Shown here: piece after piece, positions 1,715-61,764 of the stretch
Numbering within the stretch: the stretch's first letter is position 1
How the letters are laid out: each line of letters begins with the position of its first letter
Assembly (NCBI GenBank): GCA_951406725.2
Contig: OX597817.1
Location: 50,592,001 to 50,656,000, forward strand
Length of the DNA stretch: 64,000 bases
Origin: Octopus vulgaris
Taxonomy: Eukaryota
Direction: 5' to 3'
Program-made: the position numbers and the translations under genes
Notes under the pieces: generated by a model
Seen by the model: the letters and a program-made list of their open reading frames with translations, nothing else
Told to the model about the DNA's origin: nothing
Databases searched by the model: none

Positions 1715-3356
1715 AGAAAAATTTTTTAAAGGGAAGTACAACGAGCGACGATCCTAGGTTGACGGCTCGGCATATTCGTTCGAGAGTCACACAAAACACG
1801 TTGAGATATTTTTTTCCGATTCATTATGCGCTGGAGTCTAGTTAAATCGAGTTGAAATTTATTTTTCATCTTAGTTCCATAAGAAAGAGAAAATGCCTAT
1901 TTTGCCCTTCCGCTGGTTTAACTGACGAATCGTCTCCGTCATGAAAACGAAAGCCTTGTTCTTATGTGGAGAACAATTATTATAATTGATAGTCAAAAAT
2001 TAAGCACCGAAAAAATACATAGAAGGGAAACCAGGGAGACACGCAGAGAGGGACAGAGTGATAAAACCAGGGAGAGAAACAGTCAGAGAGAGAGAGGGGG
2101 GAGACAGACAAGAAGAGAAAGCGAGTGGGGCTGAAGTGTGATTTAAATATACGATGCTTTATTGTCAATTACTCGGAAAACACTAATTCCATTAATGGCT
2201 TTTATCAACAACATATCTCGTTAATTACCCCGTTTTCATTTAATTGTTTAAAATATCGATTCAGAATGTAAAATTAAACATTACAGTGAATTACATTTTA
2301 ATATTATCTTTGTTCAGGCTCATTGGGTTAATTAATAATTGAATTTCATTATAATAATTAGTTTACAAGCACTTGCACAGATATATACATACACACATTC
2401 ATATACACGTATTTATATGTGCGTGAGTATGTGTGTGTGTGTGTGTGTGTGTGTTTGTCTCTGTGTGTGTGTGTGTGTGTTTGTCTCTCTCTGTGTGTGT
2501 GTGTGTGCGTATTCAATGTTAAATGACTACAGCAAATCAAGCAGAAAAAATGACACTCGAATTATATATGTGTGTATGTGTGTGTGAGCATGCGAGTGTG
2601 TGTGTGTGTGTGCGTGTCTGGGCGCGAACGCGTGCATAAACGTTCAATTTGGTTGAGCGAAGGAATGTGGTTTATATTTGTTGTGAATATAACTCATTAA
2701 ACATCAATCTTTATCACGCGACACGAATTTAACGGAGCATTATCATTAAGCGTGAAACTCGGCTTGCGAGACAAACTCAATTTTACTCAGCATACATACA
2801 TACAAAAATACATACATACATGCACACACTCTCATACATACGTGCATACACACATATATAAATACACACACTGGTATATGTAACACACTGCATAAATAAC
2901 AATTTTGAGACATTAAGCTTCTCAAAACCGGAAAGGAGAAAGGTAATTCGAAGACTACTGATCCAAACCATCATTGGAACTGTAAAAATCTGTACAACTT
3001 TCCGAACATTTATCATTTATATATATATGAACATGTTTAGATATGCAAGTGTATGCATGACAAAGCATACATAAAAATTTTTTTAAAATATACCAATCTT
3101 CACATATATATACATATATCCATGCATGTATACATACATACAAAAATACCCTGTTGGTGTTGTAAAAATTCTAATAAAGGATAGATCTAAGGCAAAAAAA
3201 AACGGCTTTTCTCTAAGGGCAAGAAATCTTGAAATAAAACTGAATAATGACATGCATATATATACAAGCATAAATATATACACACATACATACAAACAGA
3301 CAGACAAACAGACAGAAAGACACACAGACACATCCACACACACACACATATATATA

Positions 3357-3966
3357 TATCCGTTTCTAGGTTTTTCATTTTTCAGATGTTCTTCCTAGAG
3401 GTAAGACAATTTATTCATGTTTGTTGCACACACGCATCTTTACTAGTACATACGCAGTGAAGCTATACATTAGCGTCGTATTTATTACGTTCGCTATTTT
3501 CCAGTAAATATCAGGGCTTCGTTGCGCCATTCATTTACTTTTATATGTATAATTTTACCCTCACGGGCTATCCTTTACTGGAAAGCAATACTCTCGTATT
3601 GCATTACTATTTTCATTTAAACTTCTTCACTGTTCTCGTTCTGTTAACGTTTTGGCGTTCAGACGAGTGTACTGGCATAGATGTGGCAACATTTGAAATA
3701 TTGTCGAGGCATATACGGCTGATGAAGATAAATCAAATATACGTTGGCAAACGTATTTTGAAGAATCTGAAACCGGTACTGCATTATCCGTTTCTAGGTT
3801 TTTCATTTTTCAGATGTTCTTCCTAGAGGTAAGACAATTTTTTTCATGTTTGCTGCACACACGCATCTTTATTAGTACATACGCAGTGAAGCTATACATT
3901 AGCGTCGTATTTATTACGTTCGCTATTTTCCAGTAAATATCGTTGCTTCGTTGTGCCATTTATTTA

Positions 3967-3970
<4 letters not shown>
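3357..3970 (+). mobile_element. Hammerhead-bearing non-coding element, about 1.4 tandem monomers (429-nt period), in (TA)n
   Basis: 3357-3545 is repeated at 3786-3970, with a hammerhead between the copies. TA runs lie on both sides. Confidence 0.8.
3714..3783 (+). ncRNA. Type I hammerhead ribozyme
   Basis: tacgg-CTGATGA-agat[long hairpin tcaaatatacgtt ggca aacgtattttga]atct-GAAA-ccgg-TA-ctgca. Stem III is a minimal palindrome. Confidence 0.75.
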
Positions 3971-4047
<77 letters not shown>

Positions 4048-4068
4048 CTGAGAATACGTGTCTGTCTG

Positions 4069-5210
<1,142 letters not shown>

Positions 5211-5211
5211 T

Positions 5212-15967: not shown

Positions 15968-16065
<98 letters not shown>

Positions 16066-16279
16066 AATTAGAAAAAAAAAAAACACCTTTTATCAATTCA
16101 ATAATGCAAAAATTAAATTATACCATTTAGAAAAAATGCATATTATAGAAAGATTAAATATACGATAAAACATATAACAATGATTAAGTAATGTGTAAAA
16201 TAGTAAATGTATTTATTTACTAAATGGTATAATTTAATTTTTCATTATTGAATTGATAAAAGGTGTTTTTTTCTAATTT
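16066..16279. mobile_element. MITE-like element with about 65-bp inverted termini in (TA)n
   Basis: AAATTAGAAAA..CACCTTTTATCAATTCAATAATG..ATACCATTTAG pairs with CTAAATGGTAT..GAATTGATAAAAGGTG..CTAATTT. Confidence 0.7.
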
Positions 16280-16294
16280 ATATATATGTATGTC

Positions 16295-16357
<63 letters not shown>

Positions 16358-16442
16358 TTCGAGACAAAACCACTATTTTGCAAAACAAACAAGGAAAGAC
16401 TTAATCAATACATAAAAATTTTTAATATAAAGAAATAAACCG

Positions 16443-16485
16443 CCACTACAATCGTTTCATGTCTTCAATGACATTCGTCAGGTGG
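16443..16485 (-). ncRNA. Type I hammerhead ribozyme (antisense mirror copy)
   Basis: Exact reverse complement of 16533-16575. Confidence 0.8.
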
Positions 16486-16532
16486 ATTTTCGATCTCCTA
16501 ATCTGTTTAAAACAGATTAGGAGATCGAAAAT

Positions 16533-16575
16533 CCACCTGACGAATGTCATTGAAGACATGAAACGATTGTAGTGG
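16533..16575 (+). ncRNA. Minimal type I hammerhead ribozyme
   Basis: ccac-CTGACGA-atgtc(attgaa)gacat-GAAA-c gatt g-TA-gtgg. Canonical core with perfect stems I and II. Confidence 0.88.
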
Positions 16576-16845
16576 CGGTTTATTTCTTTATATTAAAAAT
16601 TTTTATGTATTGATTAAGTCTTTCCTTGTTTGTTTTGCAAAATAGTGGTTTTGTCTCGAATTAATATTATAAAATATTTTACTATAAAATTGGATTTAAT
16701 CCTAAATCTGATTTTTTCCCTGTAAATTTGGATTTATTCCCTAATATTTATTATTATATATATATATATATATATCCAACCATACATACATATATACATC
16801 CATCCATCCACACTACATACATACATACATACATACATACATACA

Positions 16846-17804: not shown

Positions 17805-18058
17805 TATATATATATAATTTCAACAATATTAAGGAATGGCCCTGACAGGCCATTCGACTCACCAGAAAGAGCAGCCAAACTCAAACCGCTAAATAGCTAT
17901 TTAGCGGTTTGAGTTTGGCTGCTCTTTCTGGTGAGTCGAATGGCCTGTCAGGGCCATTCCTTAATATTGTTGAAATTATATATATATAGTCTGTGACTAT
18001 TTTTTCTTTCTCACTAGACCGCTTGTGGCGATAAATTTTTCTTGAATTTTTTGCTACT
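17805..18058 (+). mobile_element. Fold-back element: loop-less palindrome with about 92-bp arms plus tail
   Basis: Centre ATAG|CTAT at 17896/17897, arms 17805-17988. The tail CTAGACCGCTTGTGGCGATAAA...TTTTTGCTAC resembles the reverse complement of 61450-61500. Confidence 0.8.
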
Positions 18059-18074
18059 CATTACTCATTTTACT

Positions 18075-18474
18075 CATTTACTTTTTTCAGTCATTTGACT
18101 GCGGCCATGCTGGAGCACCGCCTTTAGTTGAGCAAATCGACCCCGGGACTTATTCTTTGTAAGCCCAGTACTTATTCTATCGGTCTCTTTTGCCGAACCG
18201 CTAAGTGGCGGGGACGTAAACACACCAGCATCGGTTGTCAAGCAATGCTAGTGAGACAATCACAGACACACAAACACATGCACACACATACATATATATA
18301 TACATATATACGACAGGCTTCTTTCAGTTTCCGTCTACCAAATCCACTCACAAGGCATTGGTCGGCCCAGGGCTATAGCAGAAGACACTTGCCCAAGATG
18401 CCACGCAGTGGGACTGAACCTGGAACCATGTGGTTGGTTAGCAAGCTACTTACCACACAGCCACTCCTGCGCCT
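18075..18474 (-). mobile_element. SINE A, full length
   Basis: Family match. Confidence 0.85.
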
Positions 18475-22281: not shown

Positions 22282-22767
<486 letters not shown>

Positions 22768-22769
22768 TG

Positions 22770-23370
22770 CTATTTCTAGCATGTGGCAGACTACCTAGCA
22801 GTCTTACCCTGTAAATATATACATGTATTAGAATTTTCTCTGATTTTTCAGATTTTTTGTACGCTACACTACTGGTTTTAAATTGATATTAAAATTAATG
22901 TTGATTTATCTCCCTCATTATTTAAATATTGAAATAAATACGTTCTCTAGTAGCAAGCACTAACAGCAGTGAATTATTTACTGCAGTTCTTCGCTTCAGG
23001 AATTTTTTAGCGCGCCGGAACTAAGACATTTGAAGTTTTATCCCTAATGTAATCGGTAAAACTAAACACGTGTCTGTTTTGGCACAGAACGCTGGGCTTA
23101 GTTTTTTCGGAATTCATTTACACTAAGCGATTGTACTGATGAAGCCACGGACATTTGAATTATGTAAGTAATTATTTTATTTAAGGCCGAAACCGAGGTA
23201 TGCAATTAATTCTGTTTTTTATATAAATTTTCATCTGCCCTGCCCGCCAAATTTGGTTCTGGTGTTCGCTGAATCTTTCCTCTAGAGAACTTTCTTTGTA
23301 GTTTGATCGTTGATGATCTATTTCTAGCATGCGGCAGACTACCTAGCAGTCTTGCCCTGTAAATATACAC

Positions 23371-23406: not shown

Positions 23407-23678
23407 AGGCGCAATGGCCCAGTGGTTAGGGCAGCGTACTCGCGGTTTCGATTCCCAGACCGGGCGTTGTGAGTGTTTATTGAGCGAAAACACCTAAAAC
23501 CTCCGCGAGGCTCCAGCAGGGGGGGAGGTCCCTGCTGTACTATTTCACCACTCTTTCTCCCACTCTTTCTTCTGTTGGCCTGCTCGCTTAGCCAGCGGGA
23601 TGGCGTCATTTGAAGGCTAAAACAATGCGAACGCATTGTGACCAGCGATGTGCAACTACATCTGATGGTCACGTGATA
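23405..23678 (+). mobile_element. tRNA-derived SINE family B (tail type 1)
   Basis: Head GGAGGCGCAATGGCCCAGTGGTTAGGGCAGCG...GGTTTCGATTCCC. Confidence 0.8.
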
Positions 23679-23754
23679 TATATATTATATTTTGTGAAAT
23701 TTGATTTAGTATTTCTAAATTGAATTTCTCCCTGTAAGTTTGGAATAATATTCC

Positions 23755-24065
<311 letters not shown>

Positions 24066-27750: not shown

Positions 27751-28604
27751 CTGTCATAGTAGAAGGAAAACCGATCGCATCTATCTGCTTAAATGTTCGC
27801 TCAAAACTCTAGAGACATTTTGATAAGATTAACAAATAGTAAGCCATTTTGTGGTATCTTTCTTTGGCTCCTGTCCTCTTTATCCCTCTTTAAAATTTAG
27901 TTTTTCTCTTTCTCCCTCTCTTATAATCCCTGAATCACCTCTCCTCTTCCTCTTACTCTGTCTATCTCTAATTCTTTGACAAATATTCTAAAATATTATA
28001 TAAATTATTAGGATTCGTTCAGACTTAATTAGACATAATGAAGATATATATCACATCAAGTAGCTGATTTATTACCAAATGGGAATACACTAAAATGTAC
28101 ACAGGCCTGTCCGATTGTCTCTTTATATATATATATATATATATGTGTGTGTGGGGGGGTGCGTGTGTGTGCGAGAGAGAGAGAGAGAGGGAGAATTTAA
28201 TCGATTAGACCCTTCCTGTGGTGCAACATTTCAATTTTATAATGAAATAATCTGTTTTACACTATCAAATTGTTGTTTCTATATTACTTTCAAATTTAGG
28301 TAAAAATGTTTTGTTCTATTTATTCAGTTTTGTTTATTCTATTTATGTATTTTTGTTTAAATGTGATAAGAATCTAAGAATCGTCTTATAAAATGACTGC
28401 ATTTTATAGATTAACAAACTTCAGCTTTCGATACCAATTAAGGCTTATTTGTTGGTAGTTTTCATTTTAATTATTAGAGAACCAAACCACTAACTAGTTT
28501 GTGTTTCACAAAATATTGACAAACATTATGTTTTCAAACGCACACATATCTATACATATGTGTGTGCGTGTGTGTGTATTTATATATATATATATATATA
28601 TATA

Positions 28605-29221
28605 TAACTAATGTAGGATAAAAAATTTTTTCCCGAAAAATTTTTTATCGTACATTAGTTATTAACCAGCATATCAAAAAATACCTTTAAAGGTTAAATT
28701 TATAAATAATTTACAAAATGAGGGCAGAAGAAAAATTCTAATGCCAAATATGCCGAAAAAAAACAAAAATTGTCAATAACCATTATAATTTATGCATCTC
28801 GAAACAAACCGATAGAAATTTCTAAAAAATCCGTTATTACCGTATTGGTCCCAATTTCGGGGTTAATTCATAAGACGTTTCCCCTCTTCAGCGATAAATA
28901 CGTAAGATATAAGTGAAATACTTACTCATACCCATGGAAAAAGCAAGCACCAAGTCCTGAGCAGACCTAAGTACCCCAAATATATCCAAAATAGAAAATC
29001 TTCGGCACATCTCGAGACACATGTGATTCGTACTAGAAACTTTCACCGAGTGAGAGAATCCGGAAGTGAACACTATTGAATTTATAACTAATGTAGGATA
29101 AAAATTTATACGGGAAAAAAATTTATCAATGGCCAGCATATCAAAAAATACCTTTAAAGGTTAAATTTATAGATAATTTACAAAATGAGGACAGAAGAAA
29201 AATTCTAATGCCAAATATGCC
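28605..29221 (-). mobile_element. Hammerhead-bearing element, about 1.3 tandem monomers (480-nt period)
   Basis: TAACTAATGTAGGATAAAAA...GCCAAATATGCC occurs at 28605 and 29085. It abuts (TA)n and is a paralogue of 33550. Confidence 0.8.
28837..28897 (-). ncRNA. Type I hammerhead ribozyme with full stem III
   Basis: Minus strand: ttatcg-CTGAAGA-gggg[18 nt]cccc-GAAA-ttgg(ga)ccaa-TA-cggtaa. Confidence 0.85.
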
Positions 29222-32405: not shown

Positions 32406-33549
32406 AAAATTTACAGAGTATTAATTGAAACAGCTGTAAGGGCTGATGATTAATTTGCTGTTAATAATAAACAATCATTAACTTCCCAATCTCCACTTTC
32501 TTTCAATTCTTTTATATATAAGGTTCCTCTTTCATTTGCGTGCTATCACATTATCGTGGCCCATTCACTCTTAATCTAGTCGAACATATGACAACTCCAA
32601 CGCAAAGCTCCTTCTCCAGTATGGAATTCACATTGAACAGTGGTAATAGTAACCTCTGCCTGATTTGAACTCAGATGACAGATACAAGGAACCGATTAGA
32701 AACACTCATATGTCTCCGCAACTCCGATAACCGTATTGAAGCTTTTAAATGCACGCTAGGAAATTATCACGCAGATAATATTGCATATATATATATGTAT
32801 ATATAATTATAATATGTATGTTATATATATTATATGTATGTGTAATATGTATGATATGAAAGTGTGATAGATAGCTGTATGCATATAAATGAATATAAAT
32901 ATACATGTGAGTGTGTGCCTGTGTGTGCATATATATTTACTCATGAATATAGACATGTATACAATTTTATATATCCATACATGCATATATAATACACATT
33001 TCTCAATTCATCCAATCCCCACATTCATGGAAAAGAGAGCAATTAGAATTAGTGGACACAAAAGTCGCCAAAAATACATTAATTCAATGATTGATATAAA
33101 TAAACGGTACATTTCTCAAAGGGGATATTTTTCGTGTTGTTTATTGTAAGAACACTCCGGAGAACCATTTGAGCAAATGAGAAAATAAAACGTTCGCTGT
33201 ATGATCAATTATATGTTAAAACTGGTATTAAAAACTGGTATTAAAAACTGGTATTAAAAGTCAGGTGTAAAGTGTAGGAATTCTTAAACTCATAAGGAAA
33301 AATGTGCTGTTTTGTTTTGTTTTTTTGTTTTTTTTCTTCTTGAAATTGCTTTTAATGTAAATAACGTTTAAACATATTATTTCAAGATGTGTCCCTTGAC
33401 GGCAACACTACATTTTAAACGATTTGAAAGATAAATATCTTCGTGAAATACATACATACATACATATGCACGTACGTACATACATGCATACATACATGCA
33501 TACAGGCATATGTAAATGTATATATAAATATATATTTATAAATATATAT

Positions 33550-33963
33550 CTAATATAGGATAAACTTTGTCGAAAAAATTTTATCAATGGCCAGCATATT
33601 AAAAAATACATTTAAAGGTTAAATTTATAAACAACTTATAAATAAGAGCAAAATAAAAAAAAATTAATGCCAAATATGCCGAAAATAGACAAATTGTCAA
33701 TAACCATATAATCTAACACTATAAACACGCGTCTCGAAATAAGCCGACAGAAATTTCTAAAAAGTTCCGTTATTATCGTATCGGTCCCAATTTCAGAGTT
33801 AATTCATACGAATTTTCTCCTCGTCAACGATAAATACGTAAGACATAAATGAAATACTTACTCATACCCATGGAAGAAACAAGCAGCAAGTCATGACGAT
33901 TTGTCTATTTTCGGCATATTTGGCATTAGAATATTTTTTTCTTTTGCCCTTGTTTATAAGTTG
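33550..33963 (-). mobile_element. Hammerhead-bearing fold-back element (paralogue of 28605)
   Basis: Body 33550-33895 is homologous to 28605-28960. An inverted fragment 33896-33963 pairs with about 33630-33700. Flanks are TA-rich. Confidence 0.78.
33773..33833 (-). ncRNA. Type I hammerhead ribozyme (UUGACGA variant)
   Basis: Minus strand: ttatcg-TTGACGA-ggag[18 nt]ctct-GAAA-ttgg(ga)ccga-TA-cgataa. The stem changes relative to the 28837 copy preserve pairing. Confidence 0.8.
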
Positions 33964-34123
33964 TGTATAAATATACATATATATATGTGTGTGAATATAC
34001 ATATATATGTATATATTTGTACATATATATATACATATATGTATACATATAGATGTATATATACATGTATATATGAATGTATATATATGTATATATATGC
34101 ATATATATATACATGTATATATA

Positions 34124-38874: not shown

Positions 38875-39830
38875 TATATATAAAAACGGCAGTTTGTCTG
38901 TCTGTGTGTCTGTGTGTCTGTCAGGTTGTACCCTCACCCTGACCACGGCTTTCAACCGATTCTGATGAAACTTGACACACACATAGCCCAATGTCATAAA
39001 TAAAAACTAACGCAGCGAAAATTTTGAAAAGTTCCCTCAGTTCTGGGAAAAAATCAATAAATTCCACATGGGGTCGAGAATCAGAAACACAAACCACAGA
39101 CTGTCTAGGGGACGCAACTCGAACTTTTTAACTCTCAACTCCATCAATATCCAGCTACATGAAGCTATTCCTGGTGATATCCACGTCTACAAATCTATTG
39201 ATAGGACAGCAGATCCCGCCGAGCTTGCCGATTATCCTGTTGAATTTCTGAATTCACTTGAACCGCCAGGCCTGCCGCCACACATCCTGAAGTTAAAAGT
39301 CGGTGCGCCCATTATGCTCATCAGGAATTTGGTTCCACCTAAACAGTGCAACGGCACACGTCTGGTTGTGAAACATTTGCCACCACATTTAATAACGGCC
39401 ACAATACTTACCGGTTGTGGGAAGGGAGAGGACGTCTTCATTCCACGCATGCACCTTCAACCGTCGGGCGCTGACCGACCAATCCACTTCAGGAGTTCTC
39501 AGTTTCCTGTTAAACTCTGCTTCGCAATGTCCATCAATAAATCCCAAGGCCAAACGCTACAAGTCGCTGGGTTACAGTTGGGCAAACAGTGCTTCGCCCA
39601 CGGTCAACTCTATGTGGGCTGTTCACGCGTTGGGAGGCACAATGATGTTTTCATGTTTTCGCCCAAAGAGACAGCTAGGAACATCGTATACACAGAAGTA
39701 TACCAGTGAAGAGAAGACATTGCAACCTACACATGCGCCTTCGTTCCCTAGAGGGAAAGGACTAGATTGGGATTAGCCGTTGCCTACTAGGGGCTCTTAC
39801 ATACCCGGGCAACGCTGGGCTATGCTGCTA

Positions 39831-40045: not shown

Positions 40046-40918
40046 TGTGATCTGATCAATAAGTATACGGACTTTTGACATACCATAGTAACGAAGCTAA
40101 AGTACTCGAAGTAAGCCGCTTGGCATAAATTCACCTTGAGCTCTGCTGGGCATGCGTATTAAGTTTTAACGTTCTGGCTCACTTCTGCTGTTTACAGCAG
40201 TGCTTGGAAAGCACGTGTGTAGCGTGTGATCGTCGCGTTGACCGCGACAGAGAAAGTTGAGCAGAGAATCTGCATCAAATTTTGCCAAATTTTGCCTGCT
40301 CAGAGGCCAATGCAAAGTTTTCAAAATGTTTTCCTCGTTCTCGACACAATCAAGGAGATCTTGGCCAACTGAAACCCGAGTGTCAGCTGAAAGCAGTTTT
40401 GACACAAACTTGGTAGACATGCGTCTCATACCCAAATCTTCGGTGATAATAGACTGAAGTGTACCGTAACTAATCTGCACATCCTCTGACAACTCAGAGA
40501 TGGTGATTCGACGATTCCCCCTCACAACTGCACGCACATCTGCAATATTTTTCTCAGATCAGCTGGTTGCGGCTCGCGCAGAACGTTCGCCAATCAGCAT
40601 TTTTTCAGCCATCTTGGAAACGTCTGAATTGCTCGTGCATATGTGCGGTTCATACACTCCTCTCCATATAGTTTCTGCAACTTTGCGTGAGCCTCTTAGC
40701 AGGTATCACCATGACAACTTTCCTTCTCATGGTCGATGTGACGATCACACGCTACACAGCTTCCTTCCAAGCCGTAAACAGCGGAAGTGAGCTAGAACGT
40801 TAAAGCTTAGAGCACGTGTAGAACAGAGATGAAGGTCAATCTTTACCAAGCGGCTTTACTCTGTGTGCTTTAGCTTCGCTACTATGGCAACAGTCCTGAT
40901 AATTATTGATCAGACCTC
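40046..40918. mobile_element. Mariner derivative made of two inverted 5' ends
   Basis: About 200-bp imperfect inverted termini (GATCTGATCAATAA.../...TTATTGATCAGACC). The plus strand gives KVEQRICIKFCQ at about 40254. The minus strand gives the transposase HTH region NRRITISELSEDVQISYGTLQSIITEDLGMRRMSTKFVSKLLS. Confidence 0.8.
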
Positions 40919-47389: not shown

Positions 47390-47845
47390 GGCACAAGTTT
47401 TCTTTTCTGTTATAAAAGCTCGCCTCTCTGTGATACAAGCTTTCCTTTCTGTTATACAAGCTGTCCTCTCTGTGATACAGGCTTTCCTTTCTGTAATACA
47501 AGCTGTCCTCTCTGTGATACAAGCTTTCCTTTCTGTGATACAAGCTGTCCTCTCTGTGATACAAGCTTTCCTTTCTGTTATACAAGCTGTCCTCTCTGTG
47601 ATACAAGTTTTCCTTTCTGTTATACAAGCTGTCCTCTCTGTGATACAAGCTTTCCTTTCTGTGATACAAGCTGTCCCCTCTGTGATACAAGCTTTCCTTT
47701 CTGTGATACAAGCTGTCCTCTCTGTGATACAAGCTTTCCTTTCTGTGATACAAGCTTTCCTTTCTGTGGTACAAACTTTTCTTTCTGAAATATAAAATTT
47801 CTTTTTCACTGATACAAAATTTCCTTTAGGAAATGCAAGCTTTCT
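47390..47845. repeat. 21-bp minisatellite with 42-bp higher-order period
   Basis: Alternating CTGTGATACAAGCTTTCCTTT and CTGTGATACAAGCTGTCCTCT, about 18 units, with degenerate edges. Confidence 0.92.
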
Positions 47846-48577
47846 TTTGTGCTTCTAAGAAGGAAAGTCATATACTTGCGCACCAGATAATCGAAACAGA
47901 ATCAATTCCTTCGTCTATTCTAACCAATACATTTTGCAAATAGATAAATCGTATTCTCTCTTCATCAGAATATTCTATCACCGACCTATACATACTAAAA
48001 GATTTAATAGTCAGCTGAGTAAACGTAAACGATAAAATGACTTTTATATAGTTAACAATTTAAGACAGCGATTAATCCTTAAGGGAATTTCATTTAATTG
48101 CTTCGCACTTGGGTCTGAAAACAATGTTGCAAAGGCAAACGTATTCAATGATAAATACTATTCAAATATGTTCGGTTTGTAAAGTTAAACTGAGATCAGG
48201 AGCTATAATGTTAATATGCAAGTCAATGTTACAGAAAACTTCAAAAGCGGTATGTCATCAAAGTCGCCATTGCGTCTTTGATGACGTATCATTTTATCCT
48301 GATCACATTATCTTTATCGTCGCCATTTTTCTTATATTTTTTGCCGATTTCTTTCATTATATTCCCTTGATCTTTTTTCTCTTGTATCCTCGCAATGCCG
48401 TGAAACGCGAAGGTTTTTGTGAAGCAGCATAAAATTCTGAAATAAAATAGTATAGAGAACTATCAGAAACTGTAACATATTACAGGGGAAAAAATTGAGA
48501 GAAAATAATTCGCTTCTACAAATATAATATAATTGACATTATGCCCCGACATACACGCACACACACAGACACACACA

Positions 48578-60598: not shown

Positions 60599-61440
60599 AC
60601 AGCAACATAGGGAAGGCGCGTGACCCTTCGGCTAGGGTGTTAGAACCATGATCGGAAGACCCTGGCTTCGATTCTTGGACGAAATGGTGCGGTGTGTTCG
60701 TGAGTAGAAAACTTCATTCCACATTCCTCTAGCCCAGTAAATGAGTGACCCTGCGTGTGCCCGATATTCCGTTCAGAAAGAGCGTGTGATTTCAGTATTT
60801 TATACGACATAGGAAGCGTGTAAACGGCTCAACGAATTCTTGGACTCGAAACTGCACTTACCACTAATATAACAATATCAATTCAAACAATTATTCACTA
60901 CGCATTTGGTATTTTGCCGAAATCAAAAATCAATAATACACAGAACTGGATTCCTTCAATGCCTTTAACGAGATTAGAAGCGAAGGACATTGTATTCAGA
61001 AGCATACAATGAGTCGTCACGTTATCCGATTCCATGATTACATTAATCGTTGTGTTCATGTTTGGCTAAAAACGGACACAAAAGGGCTGGAATAGGTTTC
61101 ACAAGTGTTTATCAAAGCCGCTGGACAATATGGATATGACTTTTGTCAAATAACTTTTTAATGTGTTTGATCTTCGTCCGAAACGTTTACTTTTTTCTGT
61201 TCAATTTCTTTTTTTTTTTTTTATTTACAATGAGCTATCTCGTAGGTAAAATTCCAGAAATGTGGATACATCTGAATAAATATTTACTCAACACCGCCCA
61301 CACCGAAACACACACACGCACACACACACACAGACACTCACGCATTTGCAACCACACACACATATGTATATATACACACATTTATACGCATATATATATA
61401 TATATATATATACGCATGTATATATATATATACATATATT

Positions 61441-61764
61441 AATCAATATAGGGTGGCAAAAAAATTTTGTAGAATTCTTTTGCCACCAGCGGCCTAGTAG
61501 GAAAAAATTAAAATAGTCATAGACCATTTTTAAGTTCAACATCAACAATAAAGGAACGGCCATAATAGGCCATTCACCCACTAGAAATAACAGCCAAAGC
61601 TTCAACCGCAAATAAAAGTTAATTCAGTAAACCAGGAGAAAATTTAAAAACATTTACCCTGTAATTTCTTATACGATATACCGTTTCATCTGCTGATTAA
61701 TGGTAAACTAACCTGATTAAATTAAATCAAGCCAATCTTCCACAGGCCCTCAGATTCATCAGTA
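61441..61764 (-). mobile_element. Hammerhead-bearing element between TA runs
   Basis: Minus-strand 3' end CTAGGCCGCTGGTGGCAAAAG...TTTTTGCCACCC forms a hairpin. The 5' junction is 2 nt before the CTGATGA. Confidence 0.72.
61668..61764 (-). ncRNA. Type I hammerhead ribozyme (stem I 5' strand clipped)
   Basis: Minus strand: ta-CTGATGA-atctg[long loop]cagat-GAAA-cgg tata tcg-TA-taag. Confidence 0.68.

Follow-up and report, generated by a model that had tools for sequence, protein, structure and literature searches.

Metazoan non-LTR retrozymes are non-coding elements built head to tail from units of 150-450 bp with less than 50% GC, and they carry a type I hammerhead ribozyme with a weak palindromic helix III; their units measure 350-390 bp in mussel and 330/350 bp in axolotl (Cervera and de la Pena 2020, PMC7229834). 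Hammerheads with a palindromic helix III cut as dimers (PMC4209133), and an 'active' retrozyme, as defined by Li et al. 2026, needs two consecutive units with complete ribozymes. Penelope-like elements have been proposed as the partners of retrozymes (preprint 10.64898/2026.07.22.740005). They build partial tandems, with (TA)n as their target (PMC8557442, section 6), and make up 6.83% of the Octopus vulgaris assembly (PMC13282606 supplement); a search of that supplement gave no mention of ribozymes or of a motif of the family described below. In vitro, a Penelope-type enzyme starts internally, downstream of the ribozyme, and cuts AT-rich DNA, ribozyme cleavage is dispensable, and uncut RNA is the main template (PMC11167929). 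The role of the hammerhead in Penelope-like elements has been called unclear, and in the same literature circles are assumed as the template without end mapping (PMC8557442, PMC7761336). In R2 elements with a 5' HDV-like ribozyme, self-cleavage makes the RNA's 5' end, and second-strand priming by microhomology yields slightly variable junctions (PMC3774820). We found no mapping of retrozyme insertion ends against the cut, nor the present family, in the literature searched.

These systems were compared with an insertion in a 64,000-nt stretch of O. vulgaris DNA (contig OX597817.1 of assembly GCA_951406725.2, positions 50,592,001 to 50,656,000), hereafter the window. By sequence comparison the insertion spans 3357 to about 3975 of the window. 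Its non-coding unit of 428/429 nt with 36% GC lies inside the retrozyme range, and it shares with metazoan non-LTR retrozymes the type I hammerhead, the weak palindromic helix III, the head-to-tail build and a self-paired predicted circle (PMC7229834). It differs from them in comprising only 1.43 units with one ribozyme, and in an unusually long helix II (43 nt); with its single ribozyme it is an inactive offspring under the definition of Li et al. 2026. The family to which it belongs has the testable features of a non-LTR retrozyme, self-cleavage and RNA circles being predictions. With Penelope-like elements the insertion shares a 5'-truncated copy ahead of a full unit and a TA microsatellite target (PMC8557442, PMC4209133), but it has no RT or GIY-YIG gene, and no tail or inverted arm was seen. 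Its 3' end, like theirs, lies downstream of the ribozyme (about 190 nt, compared with about 85-90 nt in lizard Poseidon), but primer and template match, whereas Poseidon starts at a site non-homologous to the cut DNA. The mechanism that has been proposed for the 5' end, a ribozyme-made end joined by microhomology, would resemble that of R2 (PMC3774820). R2, however, is autonomous and site-specific and uses another ribozyme class, with the ribozyme downstream of the cut and kept in the copy; a cut-defined end in the octopus family would lose the ribozyme. The class of element is already known, and this copy is a decayed member.

The partial-plus-full build, the TA flanks with microhomology at both ends, the hammerhead core, the abundance of the family and the lack of a protein are observed. 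We favour, at about even confidence, the view that this is a 1.43-unit non-LTR retrozyme copy, likely inserted into a TA microsatellite by a Penelope-type RT, with a variably truncated 5' end that falls near the cut by chance.

Architecture of the insertion

All features of the insertion are given on the forward (+) strand. Upstream, a (CA)n tract is followed by a host (AT)6 run (3348-3359), the last TAT of which (3357-3359) is common to host and element, so that the 5' junction carries a 3-nt microhomology between element and host repeat. The insertion opens with a 5'-truncated partial unit without ribozyme (3357-3543), a pseudo-LTR-like repeat, and continues with a full 429-nt unit (3544-3972), 1.43 units in total. 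The element's own TA-like stretch of 5 to 10 nt runs into a (TA)38 target tract (3971-4046), the putative priming site; here the TATATGTATA stretch matches the (TA)38 run, which blurs the 3' junction over 3971-3980. When the flanks were examined for a target site duplication, both proved to be TA repeat.

The 187 bases that open the insertion recur from 3785. Over their full extent the two copies of the repeated segment (3357-3546 and 3785-3975) differ in 9 of 191 columns, one of these being a 1-nt indel in a T run. Because this indel separates the copies, counting from the 5' end gives a period of 428, which rises to 429 farther along. The initial annotation had placed the start of the insertion at TATCCG (3357) and the unit at 429 nt, and both placements hold; its recurrence of TATCCG at 3786 was one base off and lies at 3785. 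No inverted arm or tail of this copy was found within the window. Such a Penelope-like tail or inverted 5' arm is optional, and is present in the two other hammerhead families of the window.

The scan against Pfam covered 71 of the 385 window frames of at least 50 residues and gave no match in the six stop-free frames of that length that overlap the element. A coding role for the element was rejected.

An origin at the DNA level would also leave a short junction microhomology. The front of a longer array or of a dimer might have been lost by deletion or unequal exchange between the host's AT run and the element's TAT; alternatively, the 5' end might be a transcription start. The surroundings are suited to such events: with 140 tandem-repeat entries the window is microsatellite-rich animal DNA, locally unstable, and a second element sits in the same TA tract. 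Against this origin, the same partial-plus-full build ending in TA occurs in an unrelated family at 28606-29221, and it is the pattern described for Penelope elements (PMC8557442). We hold a DNA-level 5' end to be very unlikely.

The second element in the TA tract (4171-5211) has 133-nt inverted ends and is related to a segment at 38879-39136. It is likely a Helitron-type derivative, since this relative adjoins a Pif1 helicase frame (39011-39709, Pfam PF21530).

The ribozyme, its family and the predicted fold

The full unit carries one hammerhead only, of type I (3708-3789). Its parts are CUGAUGA (3719-3725), GAAA (3769-3772) and A17 at 3778, with the cut predicted between 3778 and 3779. Helix I (3713-3718/3779-3784) of this copy contains one mismatch and one G.U, and its pairing probability is near 0 in the folding prediction. 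Helix II (3726-3729/3765-3768) has a long extension and spans 3726-3768. Helix III is the palindrome ACCGGU (3772-3777), computed to pair with a second copy at -8.3 kcal/mol. The pair 10.1-11.1 is A-U, where G-C is usual. When the 428-nt unit was shuffled 20,000 times with dinucleotides preserved, a hammerhead descriptor, written post hoc, matched none of the shuffles. No Rfam family reached its gathering score in the window, and the 17 Rfam matches up to E 10 in 3200-4100 did not include a hammerhead. Because the ribozyme is single and its helix I has decayed, no monomer release is predicted for the copy.

In four runs of public contigs, 815-1473 contigs per run cover 427 bases of the unit. 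In three of the four runs, summed contig depth reaches tens to hundreds of thousands, compared with 27-79 for the listed long contigs of runs X1 and X2. The element therefore belongs to a high-copy repeat family, although depth gives no copy number. The unit boundary is crossed by contigs in all four runs, arrays of at least two full units were not seen, and in run X2 seven contigs run into (TA)n at 3969. Two motifs of the family had no matches in metagenome, viral or prokaryote genome collections. Within the window, a weak match at 61438-61475 (39 nt, 79%) had no extension and was not counted as a paralogue.

Across the contigs the ribozyme core at 3769-3777 has a single variant that reaches 1% (at 3776, with a maximum of 1.3%), and A to C is the only change at position 17. 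The family has G at 3715 in 72-98% of depth and A at 3717 in 74-82%, and these majority letters give helix I six Watson-Crick pairs. In unphased data, the minority letters G at 3717 (18-26%) and C at 3780 (16-32%) occur at similar frequency, as a swapped pair would; run X5 also has C at 3715 (21%), which, like C at 3768, has no partner change among the variants listed. Because the core is conserved and helix I is better in the contigs, the family ribozyme looks to be under selection, while the 3357-3975 copy has decayed. Loose contig ends at 3792 further revealed a sister family that shares the body downstream of that position and differs in hammerhead helix III and helix I. Apparently the ribozyme module has either been swapped or changes more quickly than the body does.

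Folded as a circle, the unit was predicted to reach -107.9 kcal/mol (z -4.7), and none of 100 shuffles was as low. The linear unit also folds strongly (z -6.1), as does the reverse strand (z -5.1). Long-range helices (3574-3584/3927-3937, 3625-3633/3883-3891, 3668-3675/3872-3879 and 3679-3685/3862-3868; 3574-3937 overall), with pair probabilities of 0.88-0.98, form a predicted rod with the ribozyme and the 3'-end site at opposite tips. Of 10 listed variants that fall in these helices, 8 preserve pairing (P 0.03-0.13 for transitions).

A unit that pairs strongly with itself in both circular and linear form would suit a template of one monomer on which the cut sets the end, either a nicked ring held by helix I, whose gap the enzyme crosses once before dropping off at the second encounter, or a ligated circle with a junction that stalls some fraction of passes. 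Such a template would give insertions of 0.43, 1.43 and 2.43 units, with units identical at birth. The repeat differences at 3853 and 3872 are compatible with identical units that decayed later, as they are nearly private to this copy, the family having the other letter in 90-99.8% of depth. The folding evidence, however, is weakened by the equally strong reverse strand and by one of 14 other window stretches, used as controls, that folds more strongly than the unit. The internal junction 3778/3779 has no gained or lost base, and 5' ends do not cluster at the cut in the listed contig rows or in the other families. A one-monomer template accordingly appears improbable to us.

Unusually strong folding was also predicted for the control stretches 22501-22929 (z -5.8) and 18001-18429 (z -3.7; 10 shuffles each). 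A hairpin that would lock the ribozyme core (3759-3773/3790-3805) has a probability of about 0.8 in this copy and was discarded as a candidate switch, since only two of six family variants preserve it among the 40 of 81 variant rows listed. Just past the ribozyme, 3800-3835 comprises a pyrimidine tract with CAG, a 15-nt stretch starting with ATG, and GTAAGA, an order that resembles a splice acceptor, a mini-exon and a donor. Introns are retained in Penelope elements. Family variants at 3812-3813 disrupt the AG of the acceptor-like site in part of the copies.

The 5' end relative to the predicted cut

The initial annotation had predicted cleavage after 3777-3778, with the 5' end of the insertion just past it. 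Both points agree with the hammerhead described above, for which the cut is predicted after 3778. In the copy comparison the upstream partial unit lacks the six post-cut bases (3779-3784), and the first base retained is the seventh past the cut. As the host flank ends in (AT)6 and the element has TAT at this point, the junction can be placed anywhere 6-9 nt past the cut. This TAT is the first one past the cut. If 5' ends were uniform, the chance of an end in this zone would be 10/428 or 2.3% per copy; if TA microhomology is required, it is one of the 20 TAT/ATA sites in the unit, or 5%.

The initial annotation had further proposed that reverse transcription ran to the end of a cleaved multimeric RNA. 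A multi-unit, ribozyme-bearing insertion, most simply explained by reverse transcription and with a junction near the predicted cut, stands. The claim that the cut set the 5' end fared less well: among the other insertions no end lies near its cut, and the listed contigs show no clustering. In its full form, the proposal takes a linear multimer as template, with a 5' end made by the hammerhead. Synthesis would start from the UA stretch of the second unit, pass one uncut ribozyme and run off at the 5'-OH, and 6 nt would be lost when TAT annealed. This template predicts a junction where it is found, 6-9 nt beyond the cut and at the first TAT, and the palindromic helix III implies dimer-dependent and incomplete cutting. 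Multimeric RNAs are reported for such ribozymes in axolotl (PMC7229834), and R2 offers a precedent for ribozyme-made ends (PMC3774820).

Contigs also show an excess of depth downstream of the cut, the summed depth being 1.6-2.3 times higher over the segment from cut to 3' end than upstream. Such an excess is expected from a cut-defined end and equally from ordinary 5' truncation. Depth swings 3- to 18-fold within segments, which makes it unusable as copy number, and the profile has its minimum over the ribozyme, with high values on both sides; in run X2 it shows no sharp change at the cut.

Loose contig ends were also inspected. None of the 5' loose ends listed falls within 3779-3791, the rows listed being 24 of 470 and 24 of 66 in five runs; this is a weak test, since short contigs, as those at TA junctions are, may be lost to filtering, although 3'-end TA junctions do appear among the rows listed. 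Contigs lying partly on 3745-3840 numbered 19 of 206, 17 of 175, 16 of 112 and 12 of 54. The 13 5'-side loose ends listed fall at 3757 (four), 3792 (four), 3793, 3796, 3800 and 3804 (two), and most represent diverged relatives, not flanks. In the two other type I hammerhead families of the window, the distances of 5' ends from their cuts are -118, -62, -62, about +67 to +75, and +88 nt. None of these five ends is within 10 nt of its own cut, in controls that belong to other families and of which four lie at inversion centres. The near-cut tally in the window is thus one of six ends or one of four insertions, and the chance of one such match is 9-13% with four to six tries. Also against the linear multimer, insertion of the lizard element in vitro was unaffected by ribozyme mutants, and none of its RNA-seq reads ended at the cut (PMC11167929). 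We regard the linear multimer template as a tentative possibility.

For this copy, we put the hammerhead cut as maker of the 5' end at somewhat under an even chance and ordinary truncation at roughly an even one. Most likely the end is an ordinary variable truncation that was fixed by the 3-nt TAT match, as suggested by the family at 28606-29221, which has the same single-arm build and starts 88 nt past its cut. The small per-copy probability of the coincidence (2-5%) speaks against chance, as does the first TAT past the cut, which is where run-off with microhomology would be expected to place the end. A cut-defined end, drawn from one junction, is a fair hypothesis.

In the favoured mechanism, transcripts of tandem family members would be cleaved by ribozymes that pair in twos through their palindromic helix III. 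Monomers would be ligated into rod-shaped circles, or multimers would persist. An endonuclease of Penelope type would nick (TA)n, and the nicked 3' end would anneal to the UA-like stretch of the element and prime synthesis inside the RNA. Synthesis would pass one ribozyme, exceed one unit and stop, after which TAT could prime the second strand. No Penelope-type partner element was found.

A broader proposal, which we consider doubtful, is that the family's hammerhead cut sets the 5' ends of many insertions. The template would then be cut RNA (a partly cut multimer or a nicked ring held by helix I) in place of the closed circle assumed in the published model for retrozymes, with telomerase-like TA-UA priming at the far tip of the rod. 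If this were true, the genome would record in vivo cleavage by a hammerhead, and the Penelope-type hammerhead, dispensable in vitro, would gain a concrete role in retrotransposition. The high copy number of the family allows a cheap test by counting 5' junctions against the cut. A peak at the cut would mean that the genome bears evidence of cleavage in the animal, and it would indicate which RNA form was copied; a flat spread would support a circle or uncut-RNA model.

Other hammerhead elements and repeats in the window

No similarity was found between the 3357-3975 family and the two other hammerhead families of the window. On the reverse strand, 28606-29221 is a partial-plus-full element with a period of 467 that ends in a TA run. 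It carries a type I hammerhead with a stable helix III, C3 at 28891 and a cut after 28843, and a short hairpin lies at its 3' end (28604-28662). An older relative (about 80%) at 33517-33975 is two-armed and inverted, with a damaged ribozyme core; its arms meet near 33896 and start at -118 and about +67 to +75.

The third family is represented by a 99% perfect 327-bp palindrome at 16346-16671. Both arms start at -62, and in each lies an intact hammerhead of type I, whose cut on the + strand falls after 16571. The right arm extends about 85 nt further before a TA run (16346-16760), like a Penelope tail, and a tail-only piece lies at 23676-23791. Beside the palindrome and between TA runs, 16047-16279 is a short AT-rich element with inverted ends, MITE-like by eye. 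On the reverse strand, a frame of 130 residues (40166-40558) gave weak helix-turn-helix matches, and we take it to resemble a fragment of a mariner-type transposase. Finally, a minisatellite at 47393-47848 consists of about 22 copies of a 21-nt unit with a higher period of 42 nt.
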